Below are positions 2,716-23,507 of a stretch of 28,110 nucleotides of DNA, piece by piece (position 1 is the first letter of the stretch; each line of letters opens with the position of its first letter). Source of the DNA: a virus. The position numbers and the translations under genes were made by a program. The notes under the pieces are model-generated. The model was not told where the DNA came from, ran no database searches, and saw nothing but the letters and a program-made list of their open reading frames with translations. The DNA is taken from UHGV virus genome UHGV-0095852. One strand, given 5' to 3'.

Positions 2716-3207
2716 TTAATCAAGACAAACATATTCCGTGATAGCTTTTATGGCTTCAGCGGCACTGCGCGCCTCAAAGCAGTAGTAACCTGCTTCGGTG
2801 AGGCGAGTCATCCAGACGAGTTGTTCGGGAGTCAGGCGATTTCTCCCATGTTTCATCTCAATGCGCATTCCGTGGTATCCCCCACAAGCAAGGTCTATAG
2901 AAAGATCGGGATATCCCTTCTTTTGGCCCTCTGCCACCATTTTTATTGCCGTCCTTATGCCTCGCAGACCGCCGTTTGGAGTGGCGTGTGTATGCTCATA
3001 CACATAGCGCATATTGCGATACAACCAATCCAGGACGCGTACCTGCTCGTAATGCTCATGGTTCCTTTTGATTAGATCTGGGTTTTTCTCCAGTTCTCTG
3101 AGAGCTGCGGCATGTGGGGATGTTTCAGAATATTCACTGCGACGCCTTCTTTTTCTCGCTATTTTTCTAACACACCCATTGATAGTAAATAAGCGAAATA
3201 ATAACAA
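2716..3207 (-). CDS. VRR-NUC-like (PD-(D/E)xK) nuclease; start uncertain, probably downstream of 3207
   Basis: GYPDLSIDL ... IEMK motif pattern typical of VRR-NUC; operator-like motif copy 4 lies inside the N-terminal extension, so the real start is probably later. Confidence 0.55.
   Translation of the reverse strand: MLLFRLFTINGCVRKIARKRRRRSEYSETSPHAAALRELEKNPDLIKRNHEHYEQVRVLDWLYRNMRYVYEHTHATPNGGLRGIRTAIKMVAEGQKKGYPDLSIDLACGGYHGMRIEMKHGRNRLTPEQLVWMTRLTEAGYYCFEARSAAEAIKAITEYVCLD
3158..3175 (+). promoter_or_regulatory. operator-like motif, copy 4 (TATTTTTCTAACAC)
   Basis: Same core as copies 1-3; positioned in the presumptive 5' region of the nuclease gene. Confidence 0.3.
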
Positions 3208-3346: not shown

Positions 3347-3607
3347 TTAAAGGTTTATTTTATCCGGTTCGGATATTTCTGTGATTGTCTTGTCGATTGC
3401 GATCAACCACCCTTCATAGGTTAAATCATCAACAAGCTCTACCAGTTTGTCTTCTGTATGAGGGAAGTATACCCAGCTCCAGCTCGCTGGGTTTTCTGCT
3501 TTTCGCAGCGTAAAAACCTTCTTGTAACGGTGAAACTCAAGGACATACCCCTTCGATATGGAATATTCCTTTAGGTCTTCGACCGTAAACCTACGATTCT
3601 TTCGCAT
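3347..3607 (-). CDS. hypothetical protein, 86 aa
   Basis: ATG start 2 nt after the stop of the upstream gene; GGGG run 8 nt upstream. Confidence 0.5.
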   Translation of the reverse strand: MRKNRRFTVEDLKEYSISKGYVLEFHRYKKVFTLRKAENPASWSWVYFPHTEDKLVELVDDLTYEGWLIAIDKTITEISEPDKINL

Positions 3608-3609
3608 GG

Positions 3610-4044
3610 CTACCCCATGATTCGATATTTCTCTATTGACTCGTCGTAACTTGTGTACACGTATGGCTCTGTATCATCAGCATAAGGTGCGACTTCCAGA
3701 GCATGAACGGGATTGTATACCGCGTCATTTTCCAGGCGATCGCTCGAATACAGATGCCCAGCCAAAACCGTAAGCGCCGGGCGACTCATTTTGTAGATCT
3801 CTGCCACATCACTATCTACAACTTGTCCAAATGATATGTCGCCGCGCTCCAGCAATATCGTTTTGAGCGCGGGCCACCACGGACCATAAAGGTGATAAAG
3901 CTGTGGATTTTTCTTCAGTCTTTCTACCATGCCATCAAGATAAACTGTCAGGTATTCTTCTTCACTCCTGCCATTGAGTGCCTGCGGCAAGATTTCCTCA
4001 AGGTAGGATTCCGTCGGTTTTACAGTGTCAATTAGTGTCGTCAT
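3610..4044 (-). CDS. hypothetical protein, 144 aa, immediately downstream of the DarB-like gene
   Basis: ORF with ATG start; position corresponds to the gene co-transcribed with darB in P1 (ulx) by recollection of synteny only. Confidence 0.5.
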   Translation of the reverse strand: MTTLIDTVKPTESYLEEILPQALNGRSEEEYLTVYLDGMVERLKKNPQLYHLYGPWWPALKTILLERGDISFGQVVDSDVAEIYKMSRPALTVLAGHLYSSDRLENDAVYNPVHALEVAPYADDTEPYVYTSYDESIEKYRIMG

Positions 4045-4080: not shown

Positions 4081-7000
4081 TTAGGCCGCATCGGCGATTA
4101 TTTTACGCAGTTCATCTACCGAGTAACGAGTAGATACCATCCACGCCGGACGGTCAAAGTTCACATCAGCAACCGGGTTTGCTTCAAAATTCCAGAAACG
4201 CCCGCCAATCTTCTTAATCGCGTCTTTGGCGTTCCGTATTGTCGAGGAACCTGGCTGGTCGGCAATGAGATAAACCGCGCCAACGTCTTCGCTGACGCTC
4301 CACCAGCGCCCGCGAACACGCGCCTTAGCGCGAATCGGCTTATCATTAACCACAATGATATAGTCATCATTCGCCGCTTCATCAGCTCTGGCTTCAGCCA
4401 CTGCCGCCTGCTCTTCTCTTTTGCTTTCAGCCTGCTCAAGCCTTTCCGCGATCTCTGATTCAGTGGCCCCGCCGTTTTTCAGCGATACATAGTCCTGCCA
4501 CGTTGCCGATTTGAGCGCATCCGGCAACTCATTCACATAGTCGCCGTCTTTCAACTCACGGGCGCGACGGGTGGCCATTTCTACCAGGCGATTAACAGAA
4601 ACAGCATCAGCAAAATCGTCCTTACTAATGTGTTTTTCATCAAATGCATTGATGACAGCCCCCACCTTAATCCACTGCGCTGCTGGCGAATCCAGAGGAT
4701 TATCGGCCTGAACAATGGCTAATTTCGCTCCATCGACACCATTATTAGCCAGCTGCTCCAATGCCGACCAGCCATCGGCATCGCTGAGTGATTTATATTG
4801 CTCAAACAATGCATCGCGCCAGGCCACCAGCGCAGCTCGTGTTTTCTCAATTTTCGCCGTAATTTTCGCGGCCTTCACCTGATTAAACATCCGTTCAATG
4901 TCATCAGTGTTGCTAAAGGCTTTCATCCTGCCCTGGAATAAACGGTATGCCACCACGGTCTTCCAGAAAGATTCCAGCCCTTCTCCGGACGGTTTACGGA
5001 ACAGGCTAAGAATATCTTCAGAAGTAACTTTATTAAGTGAGCGACCGGACAAACCACGCCCTGCCATCCAGTTTTCAAACTCCTGGGAAACATCATCCAT
5101 CGTGGCCTGTGACCCCCATGCCTGCATTCCCTGGATGTAATCATATCCATACAATGCCTGGAGGAATCCCTCGCCGTCCACGACATTCAGCGGGTTATCA
5201 CTGGCTTGTATTTTTGCCACTTCACGCTTCAGCGCCTCGTCGTTGCCATCAGGATATATCCATCGCTCAGGTGCTATATCCGATGCTCGCCCGATTTTTT
5301 GGCCTATCACGCCATCATAGGTCGATGACAGCGCGATCTGACCATCATCTGTGCGATAAGCCCAGTATTTAATAGCTGAACCACCGCCCCATACTCTACC
5401 AGGCTTCCCGGCAGTGACATTCATTACCCCATTGCGAATAGCATCATAGAACTGATCGCGCGTAAGTGTTGTTGATAGCTGGTGGCATTGAACACCACGT
5501 GCAGCTGTTTCACGCGATTCTGCAACTCCCTCTTCAAAGGTTACCGATTCAATTATCAGGTTAAAGGGCAAAAATAATGCCGTCCCCGGAGAACGAGAGT
5601 AACGACTAGCCACATCCAGCCAGGATATGCGGCACGTACACCCGCCCCTTTCCGCATCAATGGCGGTAACACGAACAATTGCTGTCGTATTGTGATTCTC
5701 ATCGATGATCGCGCGATAATGGCTGCCCTTGTGCAACAAGATATTTTTCTCAGTGCGTACATACTCCTGTGGGTTCTGCAATACATCGGCATCAAGCTCC
5801 AGAACCCCGGCTTTAATCGCACGTTCCAGATCACCACGAGAACGTTTCATAACGGTGTCAGCGTCTTTAGCTCTGGTGATCGCAAAGCGTAGCTCCCGCA
5901 CACGTTTTCTGTAGTCTCGCAACTGTTCCAGAACATATTTCTGCCCGTTCCTGTTCGTCCCCGCTTTAATCAGGTCGTCAAGATTGCGCTGGTAATGCTC
6001 TACCTGCTCCATCGCGCTTTTCAGTTCTGTCTCCATCATGCCGATATCTTTCCCGGCAGCATTCGCCGCTTTCAGGTAGTTATCGAGAGCATTATTGGCT
6101 TCGCGTAGGGCTTTCAGTTTCAGACGTTCTTCACGCTCTTGCGCCTGACGACTCATGATTGCACGGCGTTCTTCCGGATTTGCCGCCAGCATAATGGCGC
6201 GTTCATCTGCGTCATCCGCATCACCATTGGCGATCTCTGACATGTCTGAGGTCATCACCATATTGATCCAGTCCTTCTTACGTTTCAGCGTATCCAGACG
6301 GAAGTCATCAAATGTGCCTTTGCCACAATAGTAGTGAACATTGACCTTTTCTTGTGGTGAGCCTACCCGAGCGCCGCGCCCATTACGTTGGTCGATACTG
6401 GCAGGAGTCCAGGGTAGTGTCAGATGGTGGATATCGGTTGTACCGATGTGCAAGTTAATACCTACTTCAGCCTTCTTGTTACAGATTATGATGCGCGTGC
6501 GACCTTCGTTATAGTCGGCGGCAATACCTTCCATGCCCTCAAGGCCAGCATCATTTTTAGCTGAGAGATAATCCTCATATTGGGCAAGTTTGCTGTAGTA
6601 GGTTTCCCATGCACCTTCTTTGTATTCACCGTTTTTATTTGGCGTAGGTTCAGTCGGCTTATTCACCTTCTTCAGCTTGACGCCGCCAGCCTGGCTAACT
6701 GTCGTCGCATTGATAATGCCTATCTCCTGCTCCGGCATTTGCAGTGCACTGGCAATAATACGGCGCAGCTTCTGGTGCTGGGCTTTTTCATCAATGAAGA
6801 CGATTTGTTTACCGTTCTTCAGACCTTCACGAAGGTTTTCGATCAGCGCGGCATACTTCGGCGGGATGGGGTGTGATACCTGCTGCATATCAATACCGGC
6901 AGCCGCAATGGCCTTCAGTATTTCAGCTTCCAGTTCAATGCCAGCACGTATTTCAACATGCGACGGATGTTCGCTAAAGGTGGTCTTCACTACCTTGCTG

Positions 7001-10000
7001 GTACGCGTACTGACCAGCCCACCAGCGCCATCTTCTTCGGCCTCGTCTGCATCATCTGCCACTTTACCGCCAGCTACTTTTGGCAGGGCATCAGCAATAG
7101 CTTTTACCTTGTCTGCAAGCTCAACGGGGAACTGGAATGTAATCGCACTGGCATACAGATCAGGATCTATAGCAACCTTATCCATGTCGCGGATGATGGA
7201 GAAGATGAAATCATCCGGTTTTTCGTTTGTGATATGCCCGTTTTCATCGACCGTCAGCGCATCTTTACTACTTAACTCCTGTGCACGCTTACGAAGTTCT
7301 TCGTAAATGGCCTCTTGCTCTCCTGTCATCGGGATCTGCAAGGTATTCTCGACAATATCAGGGATTTTTACCGTCGCCCCGACGTCCGCAGCAGTCTTCA
7401 GAGTAGTCCAGCGATGGAAAATACCACGCAGACCATCCAGGTTCTGGAAGCCCACCAGTCCCTGCTTCTCTTCCACCTCACCGGAAATTTTCTGAACCTG
7501 AACTGTGGCTGTTTTACCGAACACGCGAACGAAATCATCCGGCGTAACAATACCCATGCGCATCCACTCTTCCTGCGGAATGACAGTAGACAGCATGTTG
7601 AAAGCATCAATCGGGCTGTTCACCAGCGGTGTTGCCGTCAGCATAACCACACCACGCCCGTTGTTGCGTTTCATCATGTACGCAGCTTTTACAGCCATGT
7701 CGCGGGCCATTTTGGATACTGCCGGGTTAGGCAAATATGCCAGTTGCCCCGCTTCGCGCCCGGCGCTAAAGGAGTTGCGGTAGTTATGTCCTTCGTCGGC
7801 AATTACGCTATCGAAGTTCATATCCTCAAAGTACGGGATATTCTGCTTCTTCGTTGTACCGGTATTTGCGGCCTGGTCCTTAATCTTGTTCTTCTTCTGC
7901 GCGTCACGGTGTTTGCCAGATGCCAGGTCAAGACGCCCCATTTCCACAGCATTAAAGACCGCTTGCTGTGAGTTTTCCTCAATGGTTTCTTCTCGTAGCG
8001 GGATAGACGCGAATTGCTCTTTTGTCATGATGACCGTTCGCCAATTTGACGACGGGATCATGTTCATGCGCTGAACGATAACGGCGCTGGCGGACTCTTT
8101 CACAACATTTCGGGTAAGAGGCTGCCCGTTACTGTCGAGGCGTGGTTCGCCATTTTCATCAAGCACCGGCGCGGTCAGAATATTTCCGCTGTCATCACGA
8201 ACTTCATCCAGACCGATAAACATCATATTGGCGAAGGCATCAGCACTGTAGAAGCTCTGTGCCTCGTGATACCAGTTCTGATAAACCGCCTTCGGAACAA
8301 CAATACACGTGCGTTTAGTGCGACCTGTTTCGAAGTTATACGCCTCAAGCGCAAGCGCGGTCGTGGTTTTACCCAGCCCGGTACCAAATCCCATGATGCC
8401 GCGCCCATCTTCTGACAAGCGCCGAACTTCTTCATTCTGATAAGTCAGAGGAATGCGCTTCCCACTAATCCCCTCCAGGCCAAGCGGTGCGTCAGAATGC
8501 GTAAACGGGATGAAGCCATTAAATGCGTCGTTATAGTCGCGGGCTATCTGATCAGCCTGCGGGTGAGTGCGTAACCAGTCGTTGAAGCTAATTTCCAGTT
8601 GAGCAATCTTATCCAGGTACTCGTTAGCGTTCTGCCCACGCGGTTTAATGCCGTTCAGGTAGTTTTCTAACTGGTTCAGGAAGCCGTCTTTATTGTTGGC
8701 CTTCTTGAACTCATTCCCGTTTTTGCCGTTTACGGTTCGTAGTTGATAGCCAGTAAATACCCCGTCCTTACCTTCGTAATCGTCCGGAGATACCAGAATG
8801 CCGTCCTCAACCTTAAGGTCGGGTTCTGTATACTTAAACTCGTCATAGCCCTGCTCTGCCAGGAACTCTTTTATCAAGCGGCGATCCAGCCAGCGGGCGT
8901 TCAGATTAACGGTGACTTTATTTAGTGGCGTGAAAATGCGTTTCTCTTCGATTTTCGCCAACTGACGCTCAAAGTTCGCTTTCTGCTCACCTGTTGACGC
9001 ATCACGCCAGCCCACCAGCAATGCTGTTTTGGTTGCAATATCGCCGCTGGTGGCGCGGTCCATCGGCAGCAGGCAGCCATACCCATCAATAGCGATATCA
9101 TCAAATTTCGCCAGGTATTCCAGAGCAGCATCGTCGTCTCCTGGCAGTTCGCCAGCAAACGCCTCACGAAAATCGTCCAGTGTGATTGGATTAAGTGCCA
9201 CGTCACTGAAAAGGTGGGTTACAACTTGTTCCGGGCGTGTAAAGTCAATACCGGCAGCACCATCCGTTACATCAAGTCGTCCAGCAAGGAGGTCAGAAGC
9301 AGAGCCGTCCTGTTTCACGTTGCCAGTGAAAGTCATCCAGTTTTTAGCGCCAGCTTCAGCAATCCCATTCAGCTTAATCGCGTGCGGCGGACCATACTTC
9401 GCAATTTCGGCTTCCGCCAGGCGCGCGGCATCAGCAAGTTCATCATCAACATTTTCCCCCAGATTACGCTTATCAAGCGCCTTGTTGATCAACTGCCCTA
9501 TCAGTGCGCCGCGCATAACGCGTTCTCTGTCTTTTTCTCTCTGCTTGCCAGCAAAGCGAATCATTGCCGCTACTTCATCACTGATAACCGACGGATAGTC
9601 GGACGCGATCGCCGATATCTGGTCCCATGACAACGCCAGAATGCCATTTGTTGACTGAAACGCGATCTGCAGATCACCAAACGTCGTAACACCATATCGA
9701 TTTACATCAAGAGCGGAGGATTTGGTTGTCGCGTCCTTGACCCATTTCAGGCCATCAAACTCATGCCAGATGCCGCCTACAAGGCGTTTATCGCCCACTT
9801 TCGCGCCCTGCCATGCCTGAGTAGTTACGCCAAGCAAATCCCAATTAATGCGGCTTTCAAAGCGGCGCGATAGAGCGGTTTTCATCGACTCATTGGATAC
9901 ACGACCGTCCTTTTTCACCACCAGGGTATTGCGGAAGCTGGTACGCTCCATATCGCCGTAAACAAATCGCTTCCCTTCGGTTGTAAACCATTTCCCTTTG

Positions 10001-10920
10001 AGGAAGGTATCCCAAAGGACGTTTGCCGACTTGAGCGTTGCATCATCCGTGTCGGGGATCATCTCCAGGAAGGTTTCCGGGTGTTTACGCAATACCCATA
10101 CGTCCACCACTGTATCTGTACCGGATTCGCTGAACGTACCAGAAGGCATACGATGTGCGCCCAAAAATTCCGCTTTACGGCTGACTTTATCGCGCAATTT
10201 TTTGTATTTCGTACCATCGGTCATGCCATTCGGCACCACCAATACAATTAGTCCACCAGGCTTAACCTTGTCGATCGTGCGCAGCACAAAGTAATTGCCA
10301 ACGTTCTTCTCGTTTGCATATGCCGGATCAAGCCCGGCAACGCCGGAACGCCCTTCACCAAACGGTACGTTACCAACAGCGTGGTCATACATTGCGTCTT
10401 TCGCCGCCAGCGCCTCAAACGCCCCGATATTCACATCGTCTTCCGGGTGCAAAAGCTGGTTTATTCGACCGGAAATCGGAGATAGTTCGGCGCTGGTCAT
10501 TATCATGCCCTGCCGTTTTGTCTCCTGGAAAATACCTGTGCCCGCTGATGGTTCCAGTACGTGCCCGCCATCAATACCGTAGTCAGCAAACAGATCCCAT
10601 ATACCTTCAGCCATAAACTGTGGTGTGTAGTATTCGTATTGGCTGCCCTCACCATCTGTCAGGCCGCCTTCACCGGTATACCCGGCAAGAATCTGACGTT
10701 GTTCGTCAGTTAATTTCGCCCCATCGAAGCCGGGCGGAAGGGAATTAAGAAGCTCTACTGCGGCGTTGTTTGCTGCCCGCCGTGTTTTTTGAATGCTGAC
10801 ACCATCGACTTTCTTAACGCCAAAGGTCGCAACAGCACGTAATTTATGCAACCGACTAACAATTTCAATCAGTTCGCCTAAGCTGGAGGCTTCACTGATT
10901 GAATGAAGTAGTTTATCCAA
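4081..10920 (-). CDS. darB: DarB-like antirestriction protein: N-terminal N6-adenine methyltransferase domain fused to SF2 helicase
   Basis: 2279-aa ORF; MTase motif I LEPSAGTGIF and motif IV GNVPFG; Walker A GFGTGLGKTT; DEGH box VIADEGH; helicase motif VI QRNGRGARVG; GAGGGGG RBS. Confidence 0.9.
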   Translation of the reverse strand: MDKLLHSISEASSLGELIEIVSRLHKLRAVATFGVKKVDGVSIQKTRRAANNAAVELLNSLPPGFDGAKLTDEQRQILAGYTGEGGLTDGEGSQYEYYTPQFMAEGIWDLFADYGIDGGHVLEPSAGTGIFQETKRQGMIMTSAELSPISGRINQLLHPEDDVNIGAFEALAAKDAMYDHAVGNVPFGEGRSGVAGLDPAYANEKNVGNYFVLRTIDKVKPGGLIVLVVPNGMTDGTKYKKLRDKVSRKAEFLGAHRMPSGTFSESGTDTVVDVWVLRKHPETFLEMIPDTDDATLKSANVLWDTFLKGKWFTTEGKRFVYGDMERTSFRNTLVVKKDGRVSNESMKTALSRRFESRINWDLLGVTTQAWQGAKVGDKRLVGGIWHEFDGLKWVKDATTKSSALDVNRYGVTTFGDLQIAFQSTNGILALSWDQISAIASDYPSVISDEVAAMIRFAGKQREKDRERVMRGALIGQLINKALDKRNLGENVDDELADAARLAEAEIAKYGPPHAIKLNGIAEAGAKNWMTFTGNVKQDGSASDLLAGRLDVTDGAAGIDFTRPEQVVTHLFSDVALNPITLDDFREAFAGELPGDDDAALEYLAKFDDIAIDGYGCLLPMDRATSGDIATKTALLVGWRDASTGEQKANFERQLAKIEEKRIFTPLNKVTVNLNARWLDRRLIKEFLAEQGYDEFKYTEPDLKVEDGILVSPDDYEGKDGVFTGYQLRTVNGKNGNEFKKANNKDGFLNQLENYLNGIKPRGQNANEYLDKIAQLEISFNDWLRTHPQADQIARDYNDAFNGFIPFTHSDAPLGLEGISGKRIPLTYQNEEVRRLSEDGRGIMGFGTGLGKTTTALALEAYNFETGRTKRTCIVVPKAVYQNWYHEAQSFYSADAFANMMFIGLDEVRDDSGNILTAPVLDENGEPRLDSNGQPLTRNVVKESASAVIVQRMNMIPSSNWRTVIMTKEQFASIPLREETIEENSQQAVFNAVEMGRLDLASGKHRDAQKKNKIKDQAANTGTTKKQNIPYFEDMNFDSVIADEGHNYRNSFSAGREAGQLAYLPNPAVSKMARDMAVKAAYMMKRNNGRGVVMLTATPLVNSPIDAFNMLSTVIPQEEWMRMGIVTPDDFVRVFGKTATVQVQKISGEVEEKQGLVGFQNLDGLRGIFHRWTTLKTAADVGATVKIPDIVENTLQIPMTGEQEAIYEELRKRAQELSSKDALTVDENGHITNEKPDDFIFSIIRDMDKVAIDPDLYASAITFQFPVELADKVKAIADALPKVAGGKVADDADEAEEDGAGGLVSTRTSKVVKTTFSEHPSHVEIRAGIELEAEILKAIAAAGIDMQQVSHPIPPKYAALIENLREGLKNGKQIVFIDEKAQHQKLRRIIASALQMPEQEIGIINATTVSQAGGVKLKKVNKPTEPTPNKNGEYKEGAWETYYSKLAQYEDYLSAKNDAGLEGMEGIAADYNEGRTRIIICNKKAEVGINLHIGTTDIHHLTLPWTPASIDQRNGRGARVGSPQEKVNVHYYCGKGTFDDFRLDTLKRKKDWINMVMTSDMSEIANGDADDADERAIMLAANPEERRAIMSRQAQEREERLKLKALREANNALDNYLKAANAAGKDIGMMETELKSAMEQVEHYQRNLDDLIKAGTNRNGQKYVLEQLRDYRKRVRELRFAITRAKDADTVMKRSRGDLERAIKAGVLELDADVLQNPQEYVRTEKNILLHKGSHYRAIIDENHNTTAIVRVTAIDAERGGCTCRISWLDVASRYSRSPGTALFLPFNLIIESVTFEEGVAESRETAARGVQCHQLSTTLTRDQFYDAIRNGVMNVTAGKPGRVWGGGSAIKYWAYRTDDGQIALSSTYDGVIGQKIGRASDIAPERWIYPDGNDEALKREVAKIQASDNPLNVVDGEGFLQALYGYDYIQGMQAWGSQATMDDVSQEFENWMAGRGLSGRSLNKVTSEDILSLFRKPSGEGLESFWKTVVAYRLFQGRMKAFSNTDDIERMFNQVKAAKITAKIEKTRAALVAWRDALFEQYKSLSDADGWSALEQLANNGVDGAKLAIVQADNPLDSPAAQWIKVGAVINAFDEKHISKDDFADAVSVNRLVEMATRRARELKDGDYVNELPDALKSATWQDYVSLKNGGATESEIAERLEQAESKREEQAAVAEARADEAANDDYIIVVNDKPIRAKARVRGRWWSVSEDVGAVYLIADQPGSSTIRNAKDAIKKIGGRFWNFEANPVADVNFDRPAWMVSTRYSVDELRKIIADAA

Positions 10921-10973: not shown

Positions 10974-11070
10974 GTATGGAGAATGTTATTTTCAGGGGGA
11001 CGATACTACCGTCAAAATCACATACTCCCCATAGTTTGCCTACTTATTAACCCATGACCGGGAGAAAAAT

Positions 11071-11556
11071 ATGGCAAACATTGAACCTCGCTGGCTAATT
11101 GAAGCCCGTAAGCACATTGGCCTGACTGAAATAAAAGGCGCTAAACACAACCCTGAAATCGTTCAGTTCTGGCGCGACATCAAGCGCGGCGGAATTAAAG
11201 ACGATGAAACGCCGTGGTGCGCAGCATTTGTCGGTGCAATGCTGGAACGTGTAGGCATCCGCTCAACAAGATTTGAGTCGGCAAAATCCTATCTGGATTG
11301 GGGCGAGAAATTAGATACACCGGCATACGGATGTATCGTTGTATTTACCCGCGTAGGCGGTGGGCACGTAGGCTTCGTTGTCGGACGCCGCGCCAATGGC
11401 GATCTGCTTGTCCTGGGTGGGAACCAGGGGGATGCGGTTAATATTCGCGCATTCCCAACATCAAGAGTGTCTGGCTATCGCTGGCCTGCTGGCGAACCAC
11501 GCAATACCGCTCTGTTACCAGTCGGAGACGCAGCAACCTCAACTAATGAGGCATGA
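11071..11556 (+). CDS. putative cell-wall peptidase, NlpC/P60 or CHAP-like papain fold
   Basis: Conserved Cys (ETPWCAAFV) and His (GGGHVGFVV) in the spacing typical of this fold; GGGAG RBS 7 nt before ATG. Confidence 0.65.
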   Translation: MANIEPRWLIEARKHIGLTEIKGAKHNPEIVQFWRDIKRGGIKDDETPWCAAFVGAMLERVGIRSTRFESAKSYLDWGEKLDTPAYGCIVVFTRVGGGHVGFVVGRRANGDLLVLGGNQGDAVNIRAFPTSRVSGYRWPAGEPRNTALLPVGDAATSTNEA

Positions 11557-11580
11557 AAAAAGCCCCGGCCAGGCCGGGGC
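11555..11580 (-). terminator. rho-independent terminator for the minus-strand antirepressor operon, shared with the convergent peptidase gene
   Basis: Stem GCCCCGG/CCGGGGC followed by T6 on the minus-strand reading. Confidence 0.6.
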
Positions 11581-11588
11581 ATCACGCA

Positions 11589-11789
11589 TCAAGTCACGAT
11601 CCAATCATTACCGACTATATCAGCCGTCGATAAATAAACTTCCCGGATCTGGAGTCCATTAATACAAAACCATCCGGTAGTAGAGTAATTATCAGGCCAG
11701 GCCCATACACCAACACTCCATGCTTTACGGCGGCACACTTCAGCCTGTTCTTCCCTGATTTTTTTTACCGCCTGCATGATGTCCATCAT
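11589..11789 (-). CDS. small hypothetical protein, 66 aa, translationally coupled to the upstream Rha-like gene
   Basis: Start overlaps the Rha-like stop; GGAGG RBS inside the 3' end of the upstream gene. Confidence 0.45.
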   Translation of the reverse strand: MMDIMQAVKKIREEQAEVCRRKAWSVGVWAWPDNYSTTGWFCINGLQIREVYLSTADIVGNDWIVT

Positions 11790-12493
11790 TCACCTCCCCA
11801 ACCGATCACCTGGAATTGCCCCATTTTGGGGTGATACCAGCGTTTTCCTCGGTGTTCAGCCTCCGACATCATCCGGTTAAAAGCATTCATGAAGGGAGAT
11901 AAGGCCACGATGGAACGACGCGACAATACCCCCTCTGGAGTTAAAAACTCATGTGTATCGGTGGGAATCCGGTAAGCGTTAACCAGGTTGCGACATTTGG
12001 CTTCAGTCAGGCCACATTTCGCCGCCAGCTGTCGGTAGCCAATGTAGCCTTCCGGAATATTGCCTTTCTTGATTTGCTCGACGGTTTCAGCGACCTGGCT
12101 AACCTTTGACTCAACAGCATGAAGCCGCTTTTGCTGCTGAACTGCATTTGCAGCCATTGCGGCGATCATCTCTATTTCGGTCAACGGCTGGCGTACTTGT
12201 TCTTCCAGTTCGCGCCAGCGGTCCACCAGCCGGGCGGTGAATTCGGGAGAGAGCTGCGCGACGACGATAATGCTATCGCGCTTGCCTTGCTCGCCTTCGA
12301 AGACGTAAGCCTCAACACTACGCCGTAGTCCTAAGTTATTGATTTTTTCGAAAACCTCAATTTGAGGACGAGCAATAACGCCACCTTTGGCTAATGTCTC
12401 AATAGTGCGTTTCACATTGTCATGACGTTTTCCCACCAGCTCCGCGATCTCAATGCTGGTCATTGATGGCTTTTCGAGAATGCAGATATCCAT
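11786..12493 (-). CDS. Rha-family phage regulatory protein (antirepressor-like)
   Basis: N-terminal MTSIEIAELVGKRHDNVKRTIETL matches the characteristic Rha N-terminal motif; GGAGG RBS 7 nt before ATG. Confidence 0.75.
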   Translation of the reverse strand: MDICILEKPSMTSIEIAELVGKRHDNVKRTIETLAKGGVIARPQIEVFEKINNLGLRRSVEAYVFEGEQGKRDSIIVVAQLSPEFTARLVDRWRELEEQVRQPLTEIEMIAAMAANAVQQQKRLHAVESKVSQVAETVEQIKKGNIPEGYIGYRQLAAKCGLTEAKCRNLVNAYRIPTDTHEFLTPEGVLSRRSIVALSPFMNAFNRMMSEAEHRGKRWYHPKMGQFQVIGWGGE

Positions 12494-12717: not shown

Positions 12718-13046
12718 AGTTACGGCCTCACTAACAGGTTTAACAACCTGCTACCCGCTGTCAAACAGGTGGCAGGACGTGACAGGGTTGACAGACTGGC
12801 GTTAGTGAAACCAGCAGGCCTAAGCCTCCCCATCACGCCCCACCATAATTCGGGCGTAACGCGGTTTACGGACACAAAAATACCGCAATATCGGAAATCT
12901 GCGGTTGTCCGCACTAACATTCAGGCTGTCAAACCTGGTCGCAGAATTTGCTACGACGGCATGAATATAAGCCTGAAAACATGGAAGATCAACTAAAAAT
13001 TTCAGCAATGGATGACTTCAGTCGATGATGCAGATCATACATTCCG

Positions 13047-16987: not shown

Positions 16988-17106
16988 GAGTCACCGCGAA
17001 ATGTTTTCAGTTTGCGGCAGCATAATCAGTATGTGATTTTTGATGATGGATCTTTTCAACTAGAAATATTGGCTGGCCCCTCTCGTAACAAAGTGAGGAA
17101 TAAAAC

Positions 17107-17135
17107 TTGAATATGCACATTGTGCGTATTAAGAT
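17107..17135 (+). promoter_or_regulatory. candidate sigma-70 promoter, -35 TTGAAT and -10 TAAGAT with 17-bp spacer
   Basis: Read directly; located about 35 bp upstream of the GGAG RBS of the 17171 gene. Confidence 0.3.
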
Positions 17136-17170
17136 TGAAAAAGTTGACCACTTTGCTGCGGAGAAATCCC

Positions 17171-17473
17171 ATGAAAAGCTCTTTAATTAATTCCAAATTA
17201 CACCAACTTGCTATCAAAAATCGAGTTCCTGCATGGTCGGTTTACATGCATATCAGCCGCGCATGTCTGAGCAATGAAAACATTTACAATCTGCAAATTC
17301 TAGGCCGGGAAGGAAGGACTTTGTTTAGCGTTGCAGAGGATTCCTATAAGGCCTGGGATATGCTGGATGACGCGTTAAGCCAATACGCGCAAACAGAAGA
17401 ATGCCAAAAAGAATGGGCCAGGTACTGTGATGAAGGGATGCCATGCTGCGGTCTGTTCGGCGCAGCTCTGTGA
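17171..17473 (+). CDS. hypothetical Cys-rich protein, about 100 aa
   Basis: ATG at 17171 with GGAG 8 nt upstream (the ORF track start at 17120 is a TTG without RBS); seven Cys, four of them in the last 25 residues. Confidence 0.5.
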   Translation: MKSSLINSKLHQLAIKNRVPAWSVYMHISRACLSNENIYNLQILGREGRTLFSVAEDSYKAWDMLDDALSQYAQTEECQKEWARYCDEGMPCCGLFGAAL

Positions 17474-17485
17474 ATCGATTCAACG

Positions 17486-17749
17486 ATGATATACTTCGTT
17501 GCGAATCACAGCATTGGCAAAGGGCATAATGTGAAACAACTCCCACCAAACACCCCGGAAACTATAATTGAAATCCGCCAGCGAATGGGGCTAACGCAAA
17601 CGGAGTTGGCCCACAAAATGGGGTATCAACTCCGGGCTTGGCAATTCAAAGAAGATAGAAATAAACCGAGACGCCTTATGGCTGGTGAATTTGAGTACCT
17701 GTTATTGCTTGCTGGAGAGCATCCTGAATTTATTCTTACACCACGCTAA
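17486..17749 (+). CDS. XRE-family helix-turn-helix DNA-binding protein; likely start at GTG 17531
   Basis: HTH signature IRQRMGLTQTELAHKMGY; AAGGG RBS 6 nt before the GTG at 17531. Confidence 0.6.
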   Translation: MIYFVANHSIGKGHNVKQLPPNTPETIIEIRQRMGLTQTELAHKMGYQLRAWQFKEDRNKPRRLMAGEFEYLLLLAGEHPEFILTPR

Positions 17750-17771
17750 AAAAACCCGCCTGACGGCGGGA
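17749..17771 (-). terminator. rho-independent terminator of the darA-type operon (stem CCCGCC/GGCGGG, then T7)
   Basis: Hairpin 17756-17771 with seven T on the minus-strand reading. Confidence 0.65.
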
Positions 17772-17783
17772 TTATCAATCATA

Positions 17784-18077
17784 TCAATTCACATCAATGT
17801 CTTGATATGATTCGCCAGTATCGTCTTCGTCGTCAGGATCTCCTTCCACCTCTGGCCACTCAACCTCCCAGCCAACAGTTTCCAGGCTCCGCAGAACAAA
17901 CACCCCATCGGCATGAATGGTATTCACGATCCCCATTGCGGAATTTGTGTTGATAAAGCGTATATCTTGCGCAATATTTTCTTCCGAAATATCGCCTTCA
18001 AATATACGCAATGTGCCGTCATCAGAGCATTCAACAATCCCTCTAATCCCAGCGGGACTCACAATGCTATACTTCAT
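17784..18077 (-). CDS. hypothetical acidic protein, 97 aa, last gene of the operon
   Basis: ATG with AAGGAG RBS at 7 nt; highly acidic C-terminus. Confidence 0.55.
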   Translation of the reverse strand: MKYSIVSPAGIRGIVECSDDGTLRIFEGDISEENIAQDIRFINTNSAMGIVNTIHADGVFVLRSLETVGWEVEWPEVEGDPDDEDDTGESYQDIDVN

Positions 18078-21000
18078 TTTGCAACTCCTTCATACATCCC
18101 AAGAAAAATTCCAGCACGCCGTCATTGTTTAATACAGAGTTAGTCGCCTGCTCCGGATCGGCATACATCTGCAAGGCCATAGAAAAAATCTCAGTCGCCC
18201 TGCAATTGCTTAATGCAGGTGGCTTTGATATAAATCTGCCGCTGACAGAACTTACCGTATTTTCCATATAAATTTTAGACATATATCCATGACTTAGGTC
18301 GGTTCGCACCAAATACTCAGCACTGCCACGGCTACCAATATTATGATAAGAAACTTTACCGTTAGTTTTTGATTTAATGAAGGCTTTGGCCCTCTCCAAT
18401 AGATGGGGATTTGAATGTTCTATATGGTGACCTATTTCATGCCATAATACACGCTCGTGATCACTATTAGCATCAATTGTTATATTCCCATTTCGACTTG
18501 CAAAAGCACGAACATTGTTCTCGTGGTTAATATTTTTTAATGTAGATAAAGTCCCTCCTGAAATAATATAGGCTTTTTCAATCGTCTCGCGAATACTGTA
18601 TGCTTTACGGGAGAAAGTTTCATTATCGTGACCACTTAACTGCTCTGCTTCATCAGAAATAGCAATCCCACGACTCCATTCCTTAGACTGGTCATGTGAC
18701 ACATTTGACGATTCAAGAATCATGTCAAATGCGGCTCTGACTTTTTTATGTACTACATTTTCAAGCGCATTAGGATAGGCTTTTTGTCCACGTGTTAATG
18801 AAGCTATTTCATATAGTTCTGCTTGCAAGTCTTCCGGTATGTCCAGATTAAAAACAAGCATTTTTTTCAGATCATATCCAATCCCATGATCATTCTGGTG
18901 CAAAACCTCAGCAAGGTAGTCAGTGAGTTTTTCCTTATTTGACCTAACGTTATTGATTTGTTCTATAGTAAAGTCAACACGCTCCTTGATTCCGTAATAT
19001 GAGGAATGCTCTGCTAATTCCACTATCTCCTTAAGCCTGACAAGTGTCTCAATATACGCATCAGCGATCTCCTCTGCCGTTAGTTCAGAGCTAACTCCGA
19101 CACTGGCTGTTATTTTCCTACCAGCCGCCATAATATCGTCGATATTATGCAAGCTCTTTTTGAATAACTTCAAAGTATTTTGGATTATGCGCACCATCTC
19201 TTCTGCGCTTCCAGCTTTATTCATTTCCTTTCTAAATCTTAAAGCTGTTTTCTCTGCAATAGACGCTGGAGATTTTAAATAGTTACCTAACCAAACAAGA
19301 CAACCATTGCGCAATTCATCAATGCTAAAGTCATCAGGAATATGTTTTGCTGCATTATGTAAAACACGTATAAATTGTTCAGCGGGCACGCCTTCTTCTG
19401 ATATGTTGCAAAACGTTTCAATATCACAATCAATATTTCTTTCATCTGCGAGCGAAGGAGCTTCATCTCCTTTTTCAATCGCGTCACGCAGTGCGTTAGC
19501 ATAAAAATTGCTGCGTTGATAAGACAATAACATCGTTGTTAACACAGCGTCGCTGTATCCATAACGTTTAGCCCACTCCTTAATCTCATTAACGGTGACA
19601 TTGCGAATATAAAAACCAAGTTCCAAAAATACATTGCGCTTTATTTTTTTTGCGGACTCCTTAATTTTTTCTGACACCTTCACGATTCGGATCAAGTCCT
19701 CCACGCTGGTCGCATCAGCAATTAGCTTTGAAATGTATGGTTCGACATCTCCTGAAACCGATTCAAACATGGCGAAATTAAGCCCTTTACCTTCGCCATA
19801 CTCAGCCTCAATTTCATCAGAAACGGCAGATAAAATGCTACGCAGATCGACATCTCCGCCGCCGAACATATCGCCTAACGCTTGTTGCTGGTGAATAAGT
19901 TCATCGTTAATTTTTTGCGCCAGTTTCTTGAAAGCTGCCCCCATTCGCTTAGCGCTTCGGTTGTTGGCAACAATAAACAGAGCAAGCGCTTCTGCTTCCG
20001 GAGTGCTATCTCCAAACAATCCACGCTGTGCGATCACCTCTTCTACTGCCTGACCGTTATCTTTTGCTTCACGAACAAGGTTAATTGCTTCCTGTAGCGC
20101 GGCAATAGCCTGTTTATCCAGACTATTCAATTGCTCTATACCGTCTACCAGTCCGGTTACCGTGTCATGGTGAACATCACCTGAAAGCGACTGCATTTGC
20201 GCAAAATCGCTGGCTGCCGTATTTAATGCGGTAAGGATGTTACGCATTTCCGGATCTGGCTCTTCCGCCACCAGCCGAACAAGCCTTTCATCCTTGTACG
20301 CTTTGGCAAAAATTGCATTCTGGATGCGGTCGATAAGTTGTTTCGTTGGACGCCCATCGGCAGTAAGCAAACCTGCCGTCGCCGTATCACCTATTTCGCG
20401 CAAAAACGCACGAATAAACGCATCATTGGACCGCGCCAGTAGATTTCCATCATCTGAAGGATTAAATAGCGCCATGACGCTCTCAGTGAGAAATTGCGCA
20501 TCCGCATACGCTTTTTCACTTGCAGCCATCTCTTGCAGATCGCTGATGTTTGAATCGCGGGCAAATTGTGCGCGGTCTACATCTGTGAGTCTTTCTCGCA
20601 CCAGTACGGGCATAGACATTTGTGAAATGTCGTCAGGATTCAGACCAAACTCTTTTGCATGATCGATCAGGTACTGGCGATATTCATCCGCCTGCCCTTG
20701 CTCATAGGCACGCCAGATACCCATGCTCCTTCCGTTGCCGGATTCAACAACGTTGTCCGGACCAACTATCGGCGCTCCGTGGCTGCTCATGCCGGAATCC
20801 GTTAATTGTGCCGGGCGTAAATTGGAGGCAATACGGTTAACCTGGAGTTTGCTGGATAGCCGTGTACGGTCACGTGGCTGGAGTTCTTCCGGGAAGGCCG
20901 GATTAATCGTACCGTCAAGGTTGTTCGAAATGATCAGACTGCTGGCATCAACGACCTTAAAAGCCGTCTTTACCTCTGCCCCTTTACTGGTGACTACGTA

Positions 21001-21108
21001 ACTACTGCGCCCCTGGCGTGTTTCTCGCCTCTCTAATGAAGAAACCAGCTCAATAACACTGTTAATGTCTGCTGCTTCGGATAGCGCGGAAGTAACTGAC
21101 TTGTTCAA
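18067..21108 (-). CDS. DdrB-like large internal head protein (by synteny) with a C-terminal HExxH motif
   Basis: 1013-aa ORF, TTG start with AAGGGGAG RBS; HEIGH encoded at 18427-18441. Confidence 0.75.
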   Translation of the reverse strand: MNKSVTSALSEAADINSVIELVSSLERRETRQGRSSYVVTSKGAEVKTAFKVVDASSLIISNNLDGTINPAFPEELQPRDRTRLSSKLQVNRIASNLRPAQLTDSGMSSHGAPIVGPDNVVESGNGRSMGIWRAYEQGQADEYRQYLIDHAKEFGLNPDDISQMSMPVLVRERLTDVDRAQFARDSNISDLQEMAASEKAYADAQFLTESVMALFNPSDDGNLLARSNDAFIRAFLREIGDTATAGLLTADGRPTKQLIDRIQNAIFAKAYKDERLVRLVAEEPDPEMRNILTALNTAASDFAQMQSLSGDVHHDTVTGLVDGIEQLNSLDKQAIAALQEAINLVREAKDNGQAVEEVIAQRGLFGDSTPEAEALALFIVANNRSAKRMGAAFKKLAQKINDELIHQQQALGDMFGGGDVDLRSILSAVSDEIEAEYGEGKGLNFAMFESVSGDVEPYISKLIADATSVEDLIRIVKVSEKIKESAKKIKRNVFLELGFYIRNVTVNEIKEWAKRYGYSDAVLTTMLLSYQRSNFYANALRDAIEKGDEAPSLADERNIDCDIETFCNISEEGVPAEQFIRVLHNAAKHIPDDFSIDELRNGCLVWLGNYLKSPASIAEKTALRFRKEMNKAGSAEEMVRIIQNTLKLFKKSLHNIDDIMAAGRKITASVGVSSELTAEEIADAYIETLVRLKEIVELAEHSSYYGIKERVDFTIEQINNVRSNKEKLTDYLAEVLHQNDHGIGYDLKKMLVFNLDIPEDLQAELYEIASLTRGQKAYPNALENVVHKKVRAAFDMILESSNVSHDQSKEWSRGIAISDEAEQLSGHDNETFSRKAYSIRETIEKAYIISGGTLSTLKNINHENNVRAFASRNGNITIDANSDHERVLWHEIGHHIEHSNPHLLERAKAFIKSKTNGKVSYHNIGSRGSAEYLVRTDLSHGYMSKIYMENTVSSVSGRFISKPPALSNCRATEIFSMALQMYADPEQATNSVLNNDGVLEFFLGCMKELQNEV

Positions 21109-21177
21109 AATACACTCCCCTTACATAGAAAGCAGGAAGTGTAAAAAGTGTGTGATTTATGGACTTACAGGAAAGTG

Positions 21178-21199
21178 AAAGGGGCATTTCAGCCCCTTT
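21178..21199 (-). terminator. stem-loop (AAAGGGGC / GCCCCTTT) between the DdrA-like and DdrB-like genes, possible attenuator
   Basis: 8-bp stem read directly, followed by a U-rich stretch on the minus-strand reading. Confidence 0.3.
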
Positions 21200-21201
21200 G
21201 A

Positions 21202-21570
21202 TTAGCCTGCATAACCGTTGGCTTTCACCCAGCTTATGGTCTGCTCTTTAGCCTGTTCCAACGTAAGGAACTCGCCTACATAGTTTGAGATCCCACGTAG
21301 CGCATCAATAAATTCCATTTGCGTGGACTTTGTGAATGCACCTCCAAGGAAGTCTGTCACTATCTTAGGAATGTCACCTGCAACAGTATCTGGCTGCGCC
21401 TGCGGATCCGATACTGATTGGGCCGCAGCCCCAAGCCCCAGTTTTAGCATCACATCAACAATCTGCTTACCAATGGCGACGCGTTGTAATACTGGCGCGG
21501 TTTTCTGCGCCTGCATTAAATCTGATAGCTCTTTACCCAATTTCAGACGGTCTAAAACAGAGATAGTCAT
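21202..21570 (-). CDS. DdrA-like small protein (by synteny), 122 aa
   Basis: Start overlaps the stop of the DarA-like gene (TAATG). Confidence 0.55.
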   Translation of the reverse strand: MTISVLDRLKLGKELSDLMQAQKTAPVLQRVAIGKQIVDVMLKLGLGAAAQSVSDPQAQPDTVAGDIPKIVTDFLGGAFTKSTQMEFIDALRGISNYVGEFLTLEQAKEQTISWVKANGYAG

Positions 21571-23507
21571 TAAGCACCTCCCTGCTGAATTTCAGCCAGA
21601 ATGTTGATCAGGTAGTCAACTGCTGCGCCAACCGTTGATTCGTTCTCGTCGTATCGACCAGCACTGATAAGAGCGTTTGCAGCTTCCTGCACATGGTCAA
21701 GTTCGGCACTGATTACCGTCAGATCGCGAGATGTAAACTGCACCGGGACGGATTTAAGGTACTCCAACGCTTTATCTGCTTCCTGATCAGCTTCAGTTGC
21801 CGCTTCTTCAGCGTCTTCCGGCGTTGGCTGTTGCTCTGGTGCTGTTTGTGGGTGTGATTCTGGCTCAACTACAGGTGCTAATTCAGGCTCTGGCGTTACT
21901 TCGTTTGAATGATTTTGAAGGGCGTTATATACGTCCATAATGAAAAGGTTCTCCCCATCACCAAGTGGATACGCCACGTTTGGAAACGCTTTGCGGAAAA
22001 GAATTTTCACTTGCGCCTTGAATGTTTTCAGGTCACTGCCAAACAGGTCTACATAGCCATCAATATGTTTCGACATGCTGGACACAACCAATTGGCCTGC
22101 AAAATCTTTCAGCTCATCTTCATCAGGAAGATAGAGCAACTCGTACTGGCTGACTTCTTCATCTGTCAGTTTACGGTCATACGTAATGATACCGTGACGA
22201 GCATATTCGTAATACTGATCAGCCTGGTCAGGACGATCAAGCACGGCTTTATTTCCATCCGGCACAGCACCAACACCAGCCGGGCGAGATTGAAGTGCAT
22301 AGTGGTATTTACCTACATCCTGGCTCTCTGGTTGTGATACTGGGTTCGTCTCGGGGTCTGTCTGTGGTGGTTCGGGGTCTTCCTGCTGGCCTGGTAACAC
22401 ATCAACTTTATATTTATCTGCGTTATGCTCTCGGTAGGCTTTAAGTAATTTGGTTGCAGCATCTGCCAAACTGCCTCCTTTGACAGCACTGGCATCAATA
22501 CTGAATTTACCTTCAGGTGCTACTATCGTAACGAAATTGTCACTGCCGGACGTGACATAATTAACTTCAGCGCCATTATCCAGCACTGTTTTTCCGTCAA
22601 TGGCAAGATTATGTTTTACATGTCGCAGCTGGTCGCTAAACGCTCGTTCTTTCGTTTTTTCACCTTTAGCAGACAACAATTTATCGCGTTTTGCTTGTAA
22701 TTCCTCGTTGATGGCTTTCTGGGCATCAAGTTTTTTTTGCATCTCCGTAAGAGCAGCACGCTTTTCAGTCAGCCCACGTTGCGCAACTTCCACCTGATCA
22801 ATCATTATTGACCGTTCTTCTGCCAGTTTATCTGCTTCATTGAGATAACTCTCAATATCTGCCTTCATTTTGTCCTGGCGCTCTTTTGCTTTCTTAAATT
22901 TTTCGCTGTTACGCTCAATCAAATTAGATAGCGCCTGGCATACCTGGCTTAAAGAAACATCTCTCCCACCAATCGGGGCGACAACGTGAGTTACGTTACG
23001 CTTATTAAGTAAAAACTGAAATGCAACAAGCTCGTCGTTACTCTTTATTTTTGCCCCGTCAGCTGTTGGAGAGTGGAAAATTATGCTTGTACTCTGCCCG
23101 TCAGTAAGCGGTATCTGCGCGGTCAAAACAGGGATATTAGCTACCCGACGTACACGACCGATAATCGCACCACCAATACAATTACGTCCATTTTCATCGG
23201 TCCCAGCTTCATCAGTCCCTGCCATAATATTCGTACCATTCAGGCCACGATTCAGCGCACGGACGAAAGCTCGCATTGTTTGAGCTAACCGAATTCTGGT
23301 TGTAGTTATGGACTCAAACATAGCTTCGTCAGACACAACCAGAATTTCATTGCCCATATAGGCAAGCTCAATATCTTCTAAGGTCGCCGCCTCAAAAATC
23401 AGGTCATCTTCGCTTAATTCTTCTGAAGACCAGCGACTTGGCATATAGCCGGGGATCGTATCAGCAAAAGTAGACTGAATATTAATTCGTAAAGGATTGT
23501 TAATCAT
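21570..23507 (-). CDS. darA: DarA-like internal head / antirestriction protein
   Basis: About 645 aa with a central coiled coil; start reassigned to ATG 23507 (GGAGG 6 nt upstream, overlaps upstream stop); size and position match the P1 darA operon as recalled. Confidence 0.75.
   Translation of the reverse strand: MINNPLRINIQSTFADTIPGYMPSRWSSEELSEDDLIFEAATLEDIELAYMGNEILVVSDEAMFESITTTRIRLAQTMRAFVRALNRGLNGTNIMAGTDEAGTDENGRNCIGGAIIGRVRRVANIPVLTAQIPLTDGQSTSIIFHSPTADGAKIKSNDELVAFQFLLNKRNVTHVVAPIGGRDVSLSQVCQALSNLIERNSEKFKKAKERQDKMKADIESYLNEADKLAEERSIMIDQVEVAQRGLTEKRAALTEMQKKLDAQKAINEELQAKRDKLLSAKGEKTKERAFSDQLRHVKHNLAIDGKTVLDNGAEVNYVTSGSDNFVTIVAPEGKFSIDASAVKGGSLADAATKLLKAYREHNADKYKVDVLPGQQEDPEPPQTDPETNPVSQPESQDVGKYHYALQSRPAGVGAVPDGNKAVLDRPDQADQYYEYARHGIITYDRKLTDEEVSQYELLYLPDEDELKDFAGQLVVSSMSKHIDGYVDLFGSDLKTFKAQVKILFRKAFPNVAYPLGDGENLFIMDVYNALQNHSNEVTPEPELAPVVEPESHPQTAPEQQPTPEDAEEAATEADQEADKALEYLKSVPVQFTSRDLTVISAELDHVQEAANALISAGRYDENESTVGAAVDYLINILAEIQQGGA

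Follow-up and report, generated by a model that had tools for sequence, protein, structure and literature searches.

The DarB protein of phage P1 is present at about 40 copies per virion, bears an N-terminal capsid-targeting sequence and is incorporated stepwise, and darB mutants are sensitive to EcoB and EcoK restriction (PMC9024508; PMC12810830; PMC12707154). Residues 1-30 are enough for capsid targeting, and residues 6-10 have been implicated (PMC9024508). P1 protects strictly in cis and against no more than subsets of type I systems (and BREX), and this led to a physical-shielding hypothesis (PMC12707154). A methylase-translocase model has also been put forward (PMC5512222), and the mechanism has been described as "not defined" even for P1 (PMC11109961). 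Plasmid-borne P1 darB alleviates EcoKI restriction via Chi and an EcoKI site in its DNA, independently of the protein, and its stop-codon and catalytic mutants still do so, for which reason assays with cloned darB are confounded (PMC11109961).

A second described member is gp15 of phage D6 (ASR76325.1), labeled in GenBank "defense against restriction; similar to P1 gene darB". The same pair of enzymatic domains is found in the polyvalent methyltransferase-SNF2 "dyad" proteins that phages and conjugative elements encode (Iyer et al. 2017, PMC5512222), among them a DarB-like protein of 3764 aa in Serratia phage Parlo, and type ISP and type I restriction-modification enzymes (LlaBIII; EcoKI HsdM plus HsdR) also bring together an SF2 translocase and a gamma-class N6-adenine methyltransferase, as in DarB. 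We have analyzed a stretch of 28,110 nucleotides of a viral genome (UHGV-0095852), here called the window, that contains a gene of this kind.

The darB gene and its neighborhood

The genes of the window considered here, with hdf and darA given from their RefSeq starts (the mechanical ORFs extend to 24135 and 23546, respectively), are the following.

3610-4044, minus strand: ulx orthologue, 144 aa, 48% identity to P1 Ulx, 36 nt downstream of darB
4081-10920, minus strand: darB orthologue, 2279 aa, TTG start, stop codon at 4081-4083
10988-11015, minus strand: candidate sigma-70-type promoter for darB, TTGACG-16-GAAAAT, from a consensus scan only
18067-21108, minus strand: full-length ddrB orthologue, 1013 aa, 44% identity end-to-end to P1 DdrB; Pfam ddrB-ParB 1e-41
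21202-21570, minus strand: ddrA orthologue, 34% identity to P1 DdrA; PHROG DdrA-like 8e-48
21570-23507, minus strand: darA orthologue, 39% identity to P1 DarA; Pfam DarA_N and DarA_C
23500-24120, minus strand: hdf orthologue, 40% identity to P1 Hdf; PHROG Hdf-like 2e-76; Pfam DarA_N

A first-pass annotation had described one unbroken ORF of 6.8 kb, giving no strand, and this is what we find on the minus strand, with 2279 sense codons followed by a stop. At a GC content of about 50% a stop-free run of that length has by our own arithmetic a chance of (61/64)^2279, or about e^-109, and cannot be attributed to chance. The TTG initiation codon, used also by the D6 orthologue, is preceded at 7 nt by a well-matching ribosome-binding site, GAGGGGG. 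The frame is under purifying selection, with a dN/dS of about 0.1 and substitutions against D6 distributed 83/46/361 over codon positions 1/2/3. The antisense ORFs inside the gene had been set aside as artefacts, and their number and length are indeed those of 200 synonymous-codon shuffles: 13 antisense stop-free stretches reach 100 aa or more, where 10.9 ± 1.8 are expected, and the longest has 234 aa against 246 ± 49. Besides, stops in D6 interrupt three of the seven listed.

The annotation had also proposed orthology with P1 DarB, and full-length alignment, synteny and the label of the D6 gene all agree. The pairwise alignment it had suggested runs from residues 1-2279 against 1-2255 of P1 DarB with 40% identity (BLASTP, 1523 bits, E = 0), and even the extreme C-termini are co-linear. 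The lack of significant similarity to DarB that the annotation had named as grounds for rejecting the orthology is thereby clearly contradicted. Synteny supports the orthology, because ulx lies directly downstream in the same orientation, as in P1, and hdf, darA, ddrA and ddrB (34-44% identity to the P1 proteins) follow the P1 order and adjoin lydA-lydB. The six-gene Dar set is thus common to the window and P1. The ulx product matches the PHROG "Ulx-like anti-restriction" (5e-59), the darB-ulx pair is also present in a distant P1-like contig, and the phage has homologues of the portal and protease, head genes of P1 type. An 86-aa ORF downstream of ulx (3347-3607) was considered as an Lxc homologue and rejected on comparison.

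Among the closest relatives, D6 gp15 is of equal length and 95% identical (92.9% at the nucleotide level), and in D6 and the D6-like plasmids the same gene appears with the same length, TTG start and neighbors, although ddrB is truncated in D6 and full-length here. Identical or nearly identical genes, named "SNF2-related protein", are found on D6-like plasmids of E. coli, Salmonella and Shigella, and the E. coli plasmid NZ_CP135715.1 (RefSeq) carries darB with 100% nucleotide identity. Over the whole window, identity is 99.9% with a non-mobilizable E. coli plasmid of 93 kb and 93-97% with phage D6. Among 5426 complete E. coli genomes, 93 carry at least 80% of darB at 81-100% nucleotide identity, nearly always on a phage-plasmid. 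We put at roughly 0.9 the probability that the ORF is the darB gene, orthologous to that of P1, of a D6-like E. coli plasmid prophage in the P1 family. The identification is already known from the annotation of D6 and is correct but ordinary.

The upstream side differs from P1. In P1, darB and the portal-protease genes are divergently oriented, but in the window the two are separated by a TIGR02594 hydrolase-like gene and by the ImmI (c4-icd-antirepressor) region. The sigma-70-type promoter is a prediction, as is PdarB of P1. A window-wide search found no late promoter of P1 type upstream of darB; the pattern AAGTKAYT-N5-TANNNT, derived from LPpro, LPlyz and LPdar, gave two matches in the window with one mismatch allowed, against 1.7 by chance.

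Domain architecture and conserved catalytic centers

The five motifs on which the first-pass annotation had relied were each located in the protein, and the domains were delimited as follows.

10831-10920, minus strand: N-terminal 30 residues, equivalent by position only to the P1 DarB capsid-targeting sequence
10636-10803, minus strand: LPD36-like helical region with the GxGU motif GYTGEGGL (about aa 80-87; motif defined in PMC5512222)
10021-10635, minus strand: gamma-class N6-adenine DNA methyltransferase domain, aa 96-300 (Pfam, Foldseek and profile matches)
10528-10557, minus strand: LEPSAGTGIF, aa 122-131
10360-10371, minus strand: NVPF, aa 184-187
8476-10020, minus strand: middle region, aa 301-815, conserved within the DarB family (comparison with P1 DarB)
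6241-8475, minus strand: SWI2/SNF2-type SF2 ATPase, aa 816-1560 (Pfam and PDB profile matches)
8362-8379, minus strand: Walker A GLGKTT, aa 848-853
7786-7797, minus strand: DEGH, aa 1042-1045
6367-6390, minus strand: QRNGRGAR, aa 1511-1518
4084-6240, minus strand: C-terminal third, aa 1561-2279 (AF2 model and comparison with P1 DarB)
5401-5940, minus strand: mosaic (recombinant) patch, aa 1661-1840 (dS comparison)

The succession of LPD36, gamma-class adenine methyltransferase and SWI2/SNF2 ATPase is the published DarB architecture (PMC5512222), and DarB of P1/P7 (2255 aa) has in common with the window protein this order and the motifs GNVPFG, GTGLGKTT, DEGH and QRNGRGAR. The methyltransferase contains the TP motif YYTP (97-100), motif I EPSAGTG and motif IV NVPF. 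When the N-terminal 827 aa were scanned alone, Pfam N6_Mtase scored 22.2 bits against a cut-off of 20.4, and there is a profile match to EcoKI HsdM. With the model of the N-terminal part, Foldseek recovered type I HsdM, TaqI, BseCI and BsaXI, with E values down to 4e-9, and its core also resembles type ISP LlaBIII, DrdV and BrxX. The middle region, 28-46% identical to P1 DarB per 100 aa, had no match in a Pfam scan; its pLDDT is about 80, and the PDB matches are confined to the 200-350 residues of the methyltransferase core. In the ATPase, Pfam detected SNF2-rel_dom (1.2e-13) and Helicase_C (4e-5), the PDB profile matches were SNF2 remodellers, LTATP accompanies the three motifs listed above to give motifs I, II, III and VI, and a large insert separates the lobes.

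We compared 23 DarB-sized representatives, distant relatives drawn from different 50%-identity clusters. Y81, G83 and G85 of the LPD36-like region are unchanged in all of them, T99-P100, E123-P124-S125, N184 and P186 of the methyltransferase are invariant, and the helicase motif residues nearly so. Within the protein, constraint is strongest in the SNF2 lobes (dN/dS 0.01-0.03); in the methyltransferase dN/dS does not exceed 0.05. As a discovery this gene matters little. What it does provide is a second natural DarB allele, 40% identical to that of P1, and the residues invariant across both lineages and 21 further clusters (both catalytic centers, the TP motif and the LPD36 glycine motif) point to mutagenesis targets for the DarB mechanism.

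The polyvalent dyads carry LPD36, the EcoKI/TaqI-like methyltransferase and the ATPase in the same order and, like the window DarB, are encoded by invasive elements and presumably introduced together with the DNA; however, those giants bear extra effector domains, whereas here there are only the dyad and the middle and C-terminal regions peculiar to DarB, seen in no proteins other than DarB-sized ones of 2000-2480 aa. Compared with the type ISP and type I enzymes, no nuclease (Pfam scans) or recognizable target-recognition domain was found, the methyltransferase precedes the ATPase, and the context is one of virion and antirestriction genes and not a restriction-modification operon.

The diverged termini

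Both ends of the protein have diverged from P1. Only 7 of the 30 N-terminal residues are identical to the P1 capsid-targeting sequence, and residues 6-10, MGVFR in P1, are HSISE here. Going by its position, this segment would target the protein to the capsid, and the signal may be co-evolving with the D6-type DarA/Hdf scaffold. The C-terminal third diverges rapidly and is 18-28% identical to P1 DarB. In the AF2 model (pLDDT 81) it forms a long coiled coil, a small beta-barrel, helical bundles and a small alpha/beta end domain. It had no Pfam match, no structure of PDB or BFVD was matched in Foldseek at E <= 0.001, and a word-indexed search with the C-terminal 749 aa returned near-identical fragments only; in an exhaustive search of representatives its homologues were found only within DarB-sized proteins. 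There is also a weak likeness to small barrels (Tudor/BAH/KOW) and to coiled coils (tape-measure), to which we attach no weight. The divergence at the N-terminus and in the C-terminal third likely marks packaging and specificity determinants peculiar to each lineage.

Within this third, comparison with four D6-type alleles revealed a patch of 540 nt where dS rises to about 1.0, against 0.06-0.37 elsewhere in darB. Its dN/dS of 0.16 at such a dS leads us to reject positive selection as the cause and indicates recombination, and the greater divergence of the patch from D6 points to mosaicism of the alleles. In the model it coincides with the small Tudor/KOW-like beta-barrel. That aa ~1660-2140 constitute an exchangeable specificity module, choosing which restriction or defence systems each allele neutralises, seems to us improbable; if true, the host systems countered by DarB of the D6 type would not be those countered by the P1 type.

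Proposed mode of action

By orthology, DarB of the D6 lineage would be packaged, co-injected and active in antirestriction. It would be produced late in infection, would enter the procapsid later than Hdf, DarA, DdrA and DdrB through its N-terminal targeting segment with the help of Ulx, and would be ejected with the DNA into the next host, where it would shield, strictly in cis, the co-packaged DNA from restriction of the EcoKI/EcoBI type (type IA). The SNF2 ATPase would carry the protein along the entering duplex, and the fused EcoKI/TaqI-like N6-adenine methyltransferase would then engage or methylate adenines, so that type I complexes could not start or complete translocation-dependent cleavage. 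For this combination of translocation and adenine engagement or methylation we can offer tentative confidence, with the odds somewhat against it. The whole explanation is weakened by the N-terminus (7/30 against P1), by the missing late promoter of P1 type and by the C-terminal third at 18-28% identity. Iida et al. in 1987 reportedly found Dar protection confined to subsets of type I systems, which argues against a simple non-specific adenine methylation.

The same orthologue could instead act as an ATP-driven translocase or roadblock, occluding the DNA or stripping or stalling type I complexes, the methyltransferase fold serving only for SAM-dependent DNA binding or base flipping and conferring no protective methylation. 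The cis-only, subset-limited protection seen in P1 (PMC12707154) and the strong constraint on the SNF2 lobes speak for it, but catalytic residues of the methyltransferase invariant in 23 relatives, with so low a dN/dS, are hard to explain if catalysis is dispensable, and we hold this alternative to be rather unlikely.

It is very improbable that the antirestriction linked to darB comes mainly from its DNA, with Chi sites producing RecBCD/ClpXP-dependent restriction alleviation and the protein mattering little. The P1 mutants that still alleviate EcoKI restriction (PMC11109961) and the abundance of Chi, with 11 sites in P1 darB, 6 in the window gene and 13 in the whole window against about 0.9 expected by our own arithmetic, are in its favor. 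However, the conserved frame of 2279 codons and the invariant catalytic residues reveal selection on the protein, P1 DarB is carried in the virion and acts in cis on whatever DNA is packaged, and the window darB has no EcoKI site.

Very improbable, too, is a plasmid defence enzyme protecting the host (restriction-modification, type ISP, DISARM or a BREX-like methyltransferase-helicase) and not carried in the virion: the likeness of the methyltransferase core to LlaBIII, DrdV and BrxX and the local matches to DISARM DrmD, DpdE, ZorD, BrxHII and type II methyltransferase models (PADLOC, NCBIfam) are in its favor but cover only generic SNF2 or methyltransferase motifs and lie far under the family cut-offs (DrmD 43.7 bits against 610), whereas co-linearity with DarB extends from one end of the protein to the other, Pfam scans found no nuclease domain in it, and its gene stands beside ulx, among Dar, virion and immunity genes and not cognate defence partners.

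The darB reading frame

Our analysis confirms that darB, described in the first-pass annotation as one uninterrupted methyltransferase-helicase gene, is a single stop-free ORF of 2279 sense codons (4081-10920, minus strand). It starts at a TTG, with GAGGGGG 7 nt upstream, and the orthologue in the related phage D6 uses the same TTG start. All five motifs quoted for the protein were found:

aa 122-131, darB: LEPSAGTGIF
aa 184-187, darB: NVPF
aa 848-853, darB: GLGKTT
aa 1042-1045, darB: DEGH
aa 1511-1518, darB: QRNGRGAR

Third codon positions take 361 of the 490 substitutions that separate darB from its D6 counterpart, and overall dN/dS is 0.08-0.11 (Nei-Gojobori, against five D6-type alleles). 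The frame is a genuine coding sequence. The antisense ORFs are a by-product of it, as had been proposed in calling them artefacts: the antisense strand holds 13 stop-free stretches of at least 100 aa (longest 234 aa), matching the 10.9 ± 1.8 (longest 246 ± 49) obtained from shuffled darB (n = 200, protein and codon usage held constant), and D6 interrupts three of the seven ORFs listed.

Orthology to P1 DarB and the Dar gene set

The proposed orthology to P1 DarB is supported by both alignment and synteny. Residues 1-2255 of P1 DarB aligned with residues 1-2279 of the window protein at 40% identity (BLASTP, 1523 bits). Per 100 residues, identity was 51-55% in the N-terminal and methyltransferase part, lay at 47-68% across the SNF2 lobes and dropped to 18-28% beyond residue 1600; the final 140 residues are nonetheless co-linear and both proteins end together. 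As in P1, ulx lies directly downstream, a pair retained also in a more distant P1-like contig, and the remaining homologues follow lydA-lydB in P1 order:

3610-4044: Ulx homologue, directly downstream of darB, 48% identity to P1 Ulx
18067-24120: hdf, darA, ddrA and ddrB homologues, 34-44% identity

Since the Dar system of P1 consists of six genes (PMC12810830, PMC9024508), the window therefore carries the full set. Its DdrB is full-length (18067-21108, minus strand, 1013 aa), 44% identical to P1 DdrB end to end, and contains the ddrB-ParB domain, whereas D6 ddrB is annotated at 455 aa plus two small ORFs. A 2.7-kb segment of low GC (0.39-0.44) without counterpart in D6, at 17040-19762, completes the window's ddrB. 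The PLSDB gene table of a 99.9%-identical plasmid lists no CDS across this segment.

Sequence comparison identifies the window as a piece of a D6-like plasmid prophage of the P1 family. Across 24 kb it shares 99.9% identity with the Escherichia coli plasmid NZ_CP135715.1 (93 kb, non-mobilizable), coverage of the window reaches at least 80% in another 96 plasmid records, and D6 matches it at 93-97% identity, one replaced segment excepted. Among 5426 complete E. coli genomes, 93 contain at least 80% of darB, nearly always plasmid-borne. The darB of D6-like elements is already known: GenBank labels D6 gene 15 as 'defense against restriction; similar to P1 gene darB', and RefSeq labels are 'SNF2-related protein' or 'DEAD/DEAH box helicase family protein'.

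Enzymatic centres and proposed mode of action

Pfam detected SNF2-rel_dom (1.2e-13), ResIII and Helicase_C in DarB, with N6_Mtase at threshold. The AlphaFold model of residues 1-820 (pLDDT 82) resembles gamma-class N6-adenine DNA methyltransferases (Foldseek, best E 4e-9), namely type I HsdM including that of EcoKI, TaqI, BseCI, BsaXI and the type ISP enzyme LlaBIII, the matches spanning only the methyltransferase core of about 200-350 residues. Among PDB entries, a family profile likewise matches EcoKI HsdM and SNF2 remodellers. This is the architecture LPD36, EcoKI/TaqI-like methyltransferase and SWI2/SNF2 dyad, of which DarB has been described as the archetype (PMC5512222). We have aligned 23 DarB-sized proteins, each from a different 50%-identity cluster: T99 and P100 (TP motif), E123, P124, S125, G129 and F131 (motif I), G183, N184 and P186 (motif IV) and the LPD36 glycines are invariant, and the helicase motifs nearly so.

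In P1, DarB joins the head after all the other Dar proteins, reaching about 40 copies per virion, and is believed to enter the cell along with the DNA; P1 mutants in darB, ulx or ddrB are sensitive to EcoB and EcoK, and protection acts only in cis (PMC9024508, PMC12810830, PMC12707154). By orthology we assign the same probable role to the window's DarB. Residues 1-30 of P1 DarB suffice for capsid targeting (PMC9024508); only 7 of these 30 positions are identical here.

The mechanism of P1 DarB has been called 'not defined' (PMC11109961). Under a published proposal of ATP-driven translocation on the injected duplex with coupled adenine methylation (PMC5512222), DarB would move by ATP along the entering duplex, and this movement would be coupled to methylation of adenines at its methyltransferase site. 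We tentatively favour a mechanism using that site (probability about 0.35) because its catalytic residues are invariant. A translocase-only model follows close behind, with a probability only slightly lower. With dN/dS of 0.01-0.03 in the ATPase lobes and at most 0.05 in the methyltransferase, both enzymatic centres are under selection. Physical shielding or stalling has also been proposed for P1 DarB (PMC12707154). A host-defence reading was rejected, since DISARM DrmD, Zorya ZorD, Dpd and BREX models matched generic motifs only, far below their cut-offs.

Relief of EcoKI restriction by cloned P1 darB DNA does not depend on the protein and is mediated by Chi sites (PMC11109961). The 28 kb window has 13 Chi sites (GCTGGTGG) against about 0.9 expected, 10 of them on the minus strand and 6 within darB. 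Type I sites number 3 (EcoKI), 4 (EcoBI) and 0 (EcoAI), with about 3.4 expected, and are therefore not avoided.

The C-terminal third and the surroundings of darB

Residues 1531-2279 had no Pfam match. When 1.84 billion representatives were scanned exhaustively with HMMER, matches were confined to 81 clusters, nearly all DarB-sized proteins (2000-2480 aa) or fragments thereof, with wide conservation limited to the first ~200 residues of the query. The model of this third (pLDDT 81) has a long coiled coil together with a small beta-barrel and helical bundles, and includes a small end domain of alpha/beta type; Foldseek searches of PDB and BFVD gave no match at E <= 0.001. Against four D6-type alleles, dS reaches about 1.0 at aa 1661-1840 (5401-5940), compared with 0.06-0.37 elsewhere in darB. 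As dN/dS is 0.16 at such dS, positive selection is ruled out and the patch is attributed to recombination; this divergence suggests that a more distant allele was the source. The patch overlaps the modelled beta-barrel. This fast-evolving, recombining third may, with low probability, set the range of restriction systems defeated by DarB.

Upstream of darB we found no P1-type late promoter but only a sigma-70-like candidate at 10988-11015, which resembles PdarB of P1, likewise a predicted promoter. Neighbouring features are:

2716-3207, minus strand: VRR-NUC nuclease-domain ORF, two genes downstream of ulx
11071-11556, plus strand: TIGR02594-family gene, peptidoglycan-hydrolase-like, tail-lysozyme PHROG, diverging from darB
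12765-12850 and 12918-12970, minus strand: C4 antisense RNA (RF01695, 68 bits) and a1/b1 targets (RF03163)

The C4 RNA and its targets precede icd and a Rha/Roi-type antirepressor (11786-12493), so that the ImmI region separates darB from repL-pro-prt, whereas P1 has its portal-protease genes diverging straight from darB. The TIGR02594-family gene is followed by a strong hairpin, rich in GC and bearing a T-run (GCCCCGGCCTGGCCGGGGC-T6, 11562-11580), which would insulate darB from the upstream ImmI operon. The D6 counterpart of the VRR-NUC ORF is annotated as pmgM-like, 'putative morphogenetic function'. In the distant P1-like contig, which encodes a 2289-aa DarB homologue, two small genes with weak Tad2-like (PF11195) matches (contig positions 3899-4156 and 14668-15186) flank darB-ulx and a Mrr_cat gene lies nearby, a gene content that hints at a possible anti-defence cluster around darB there.
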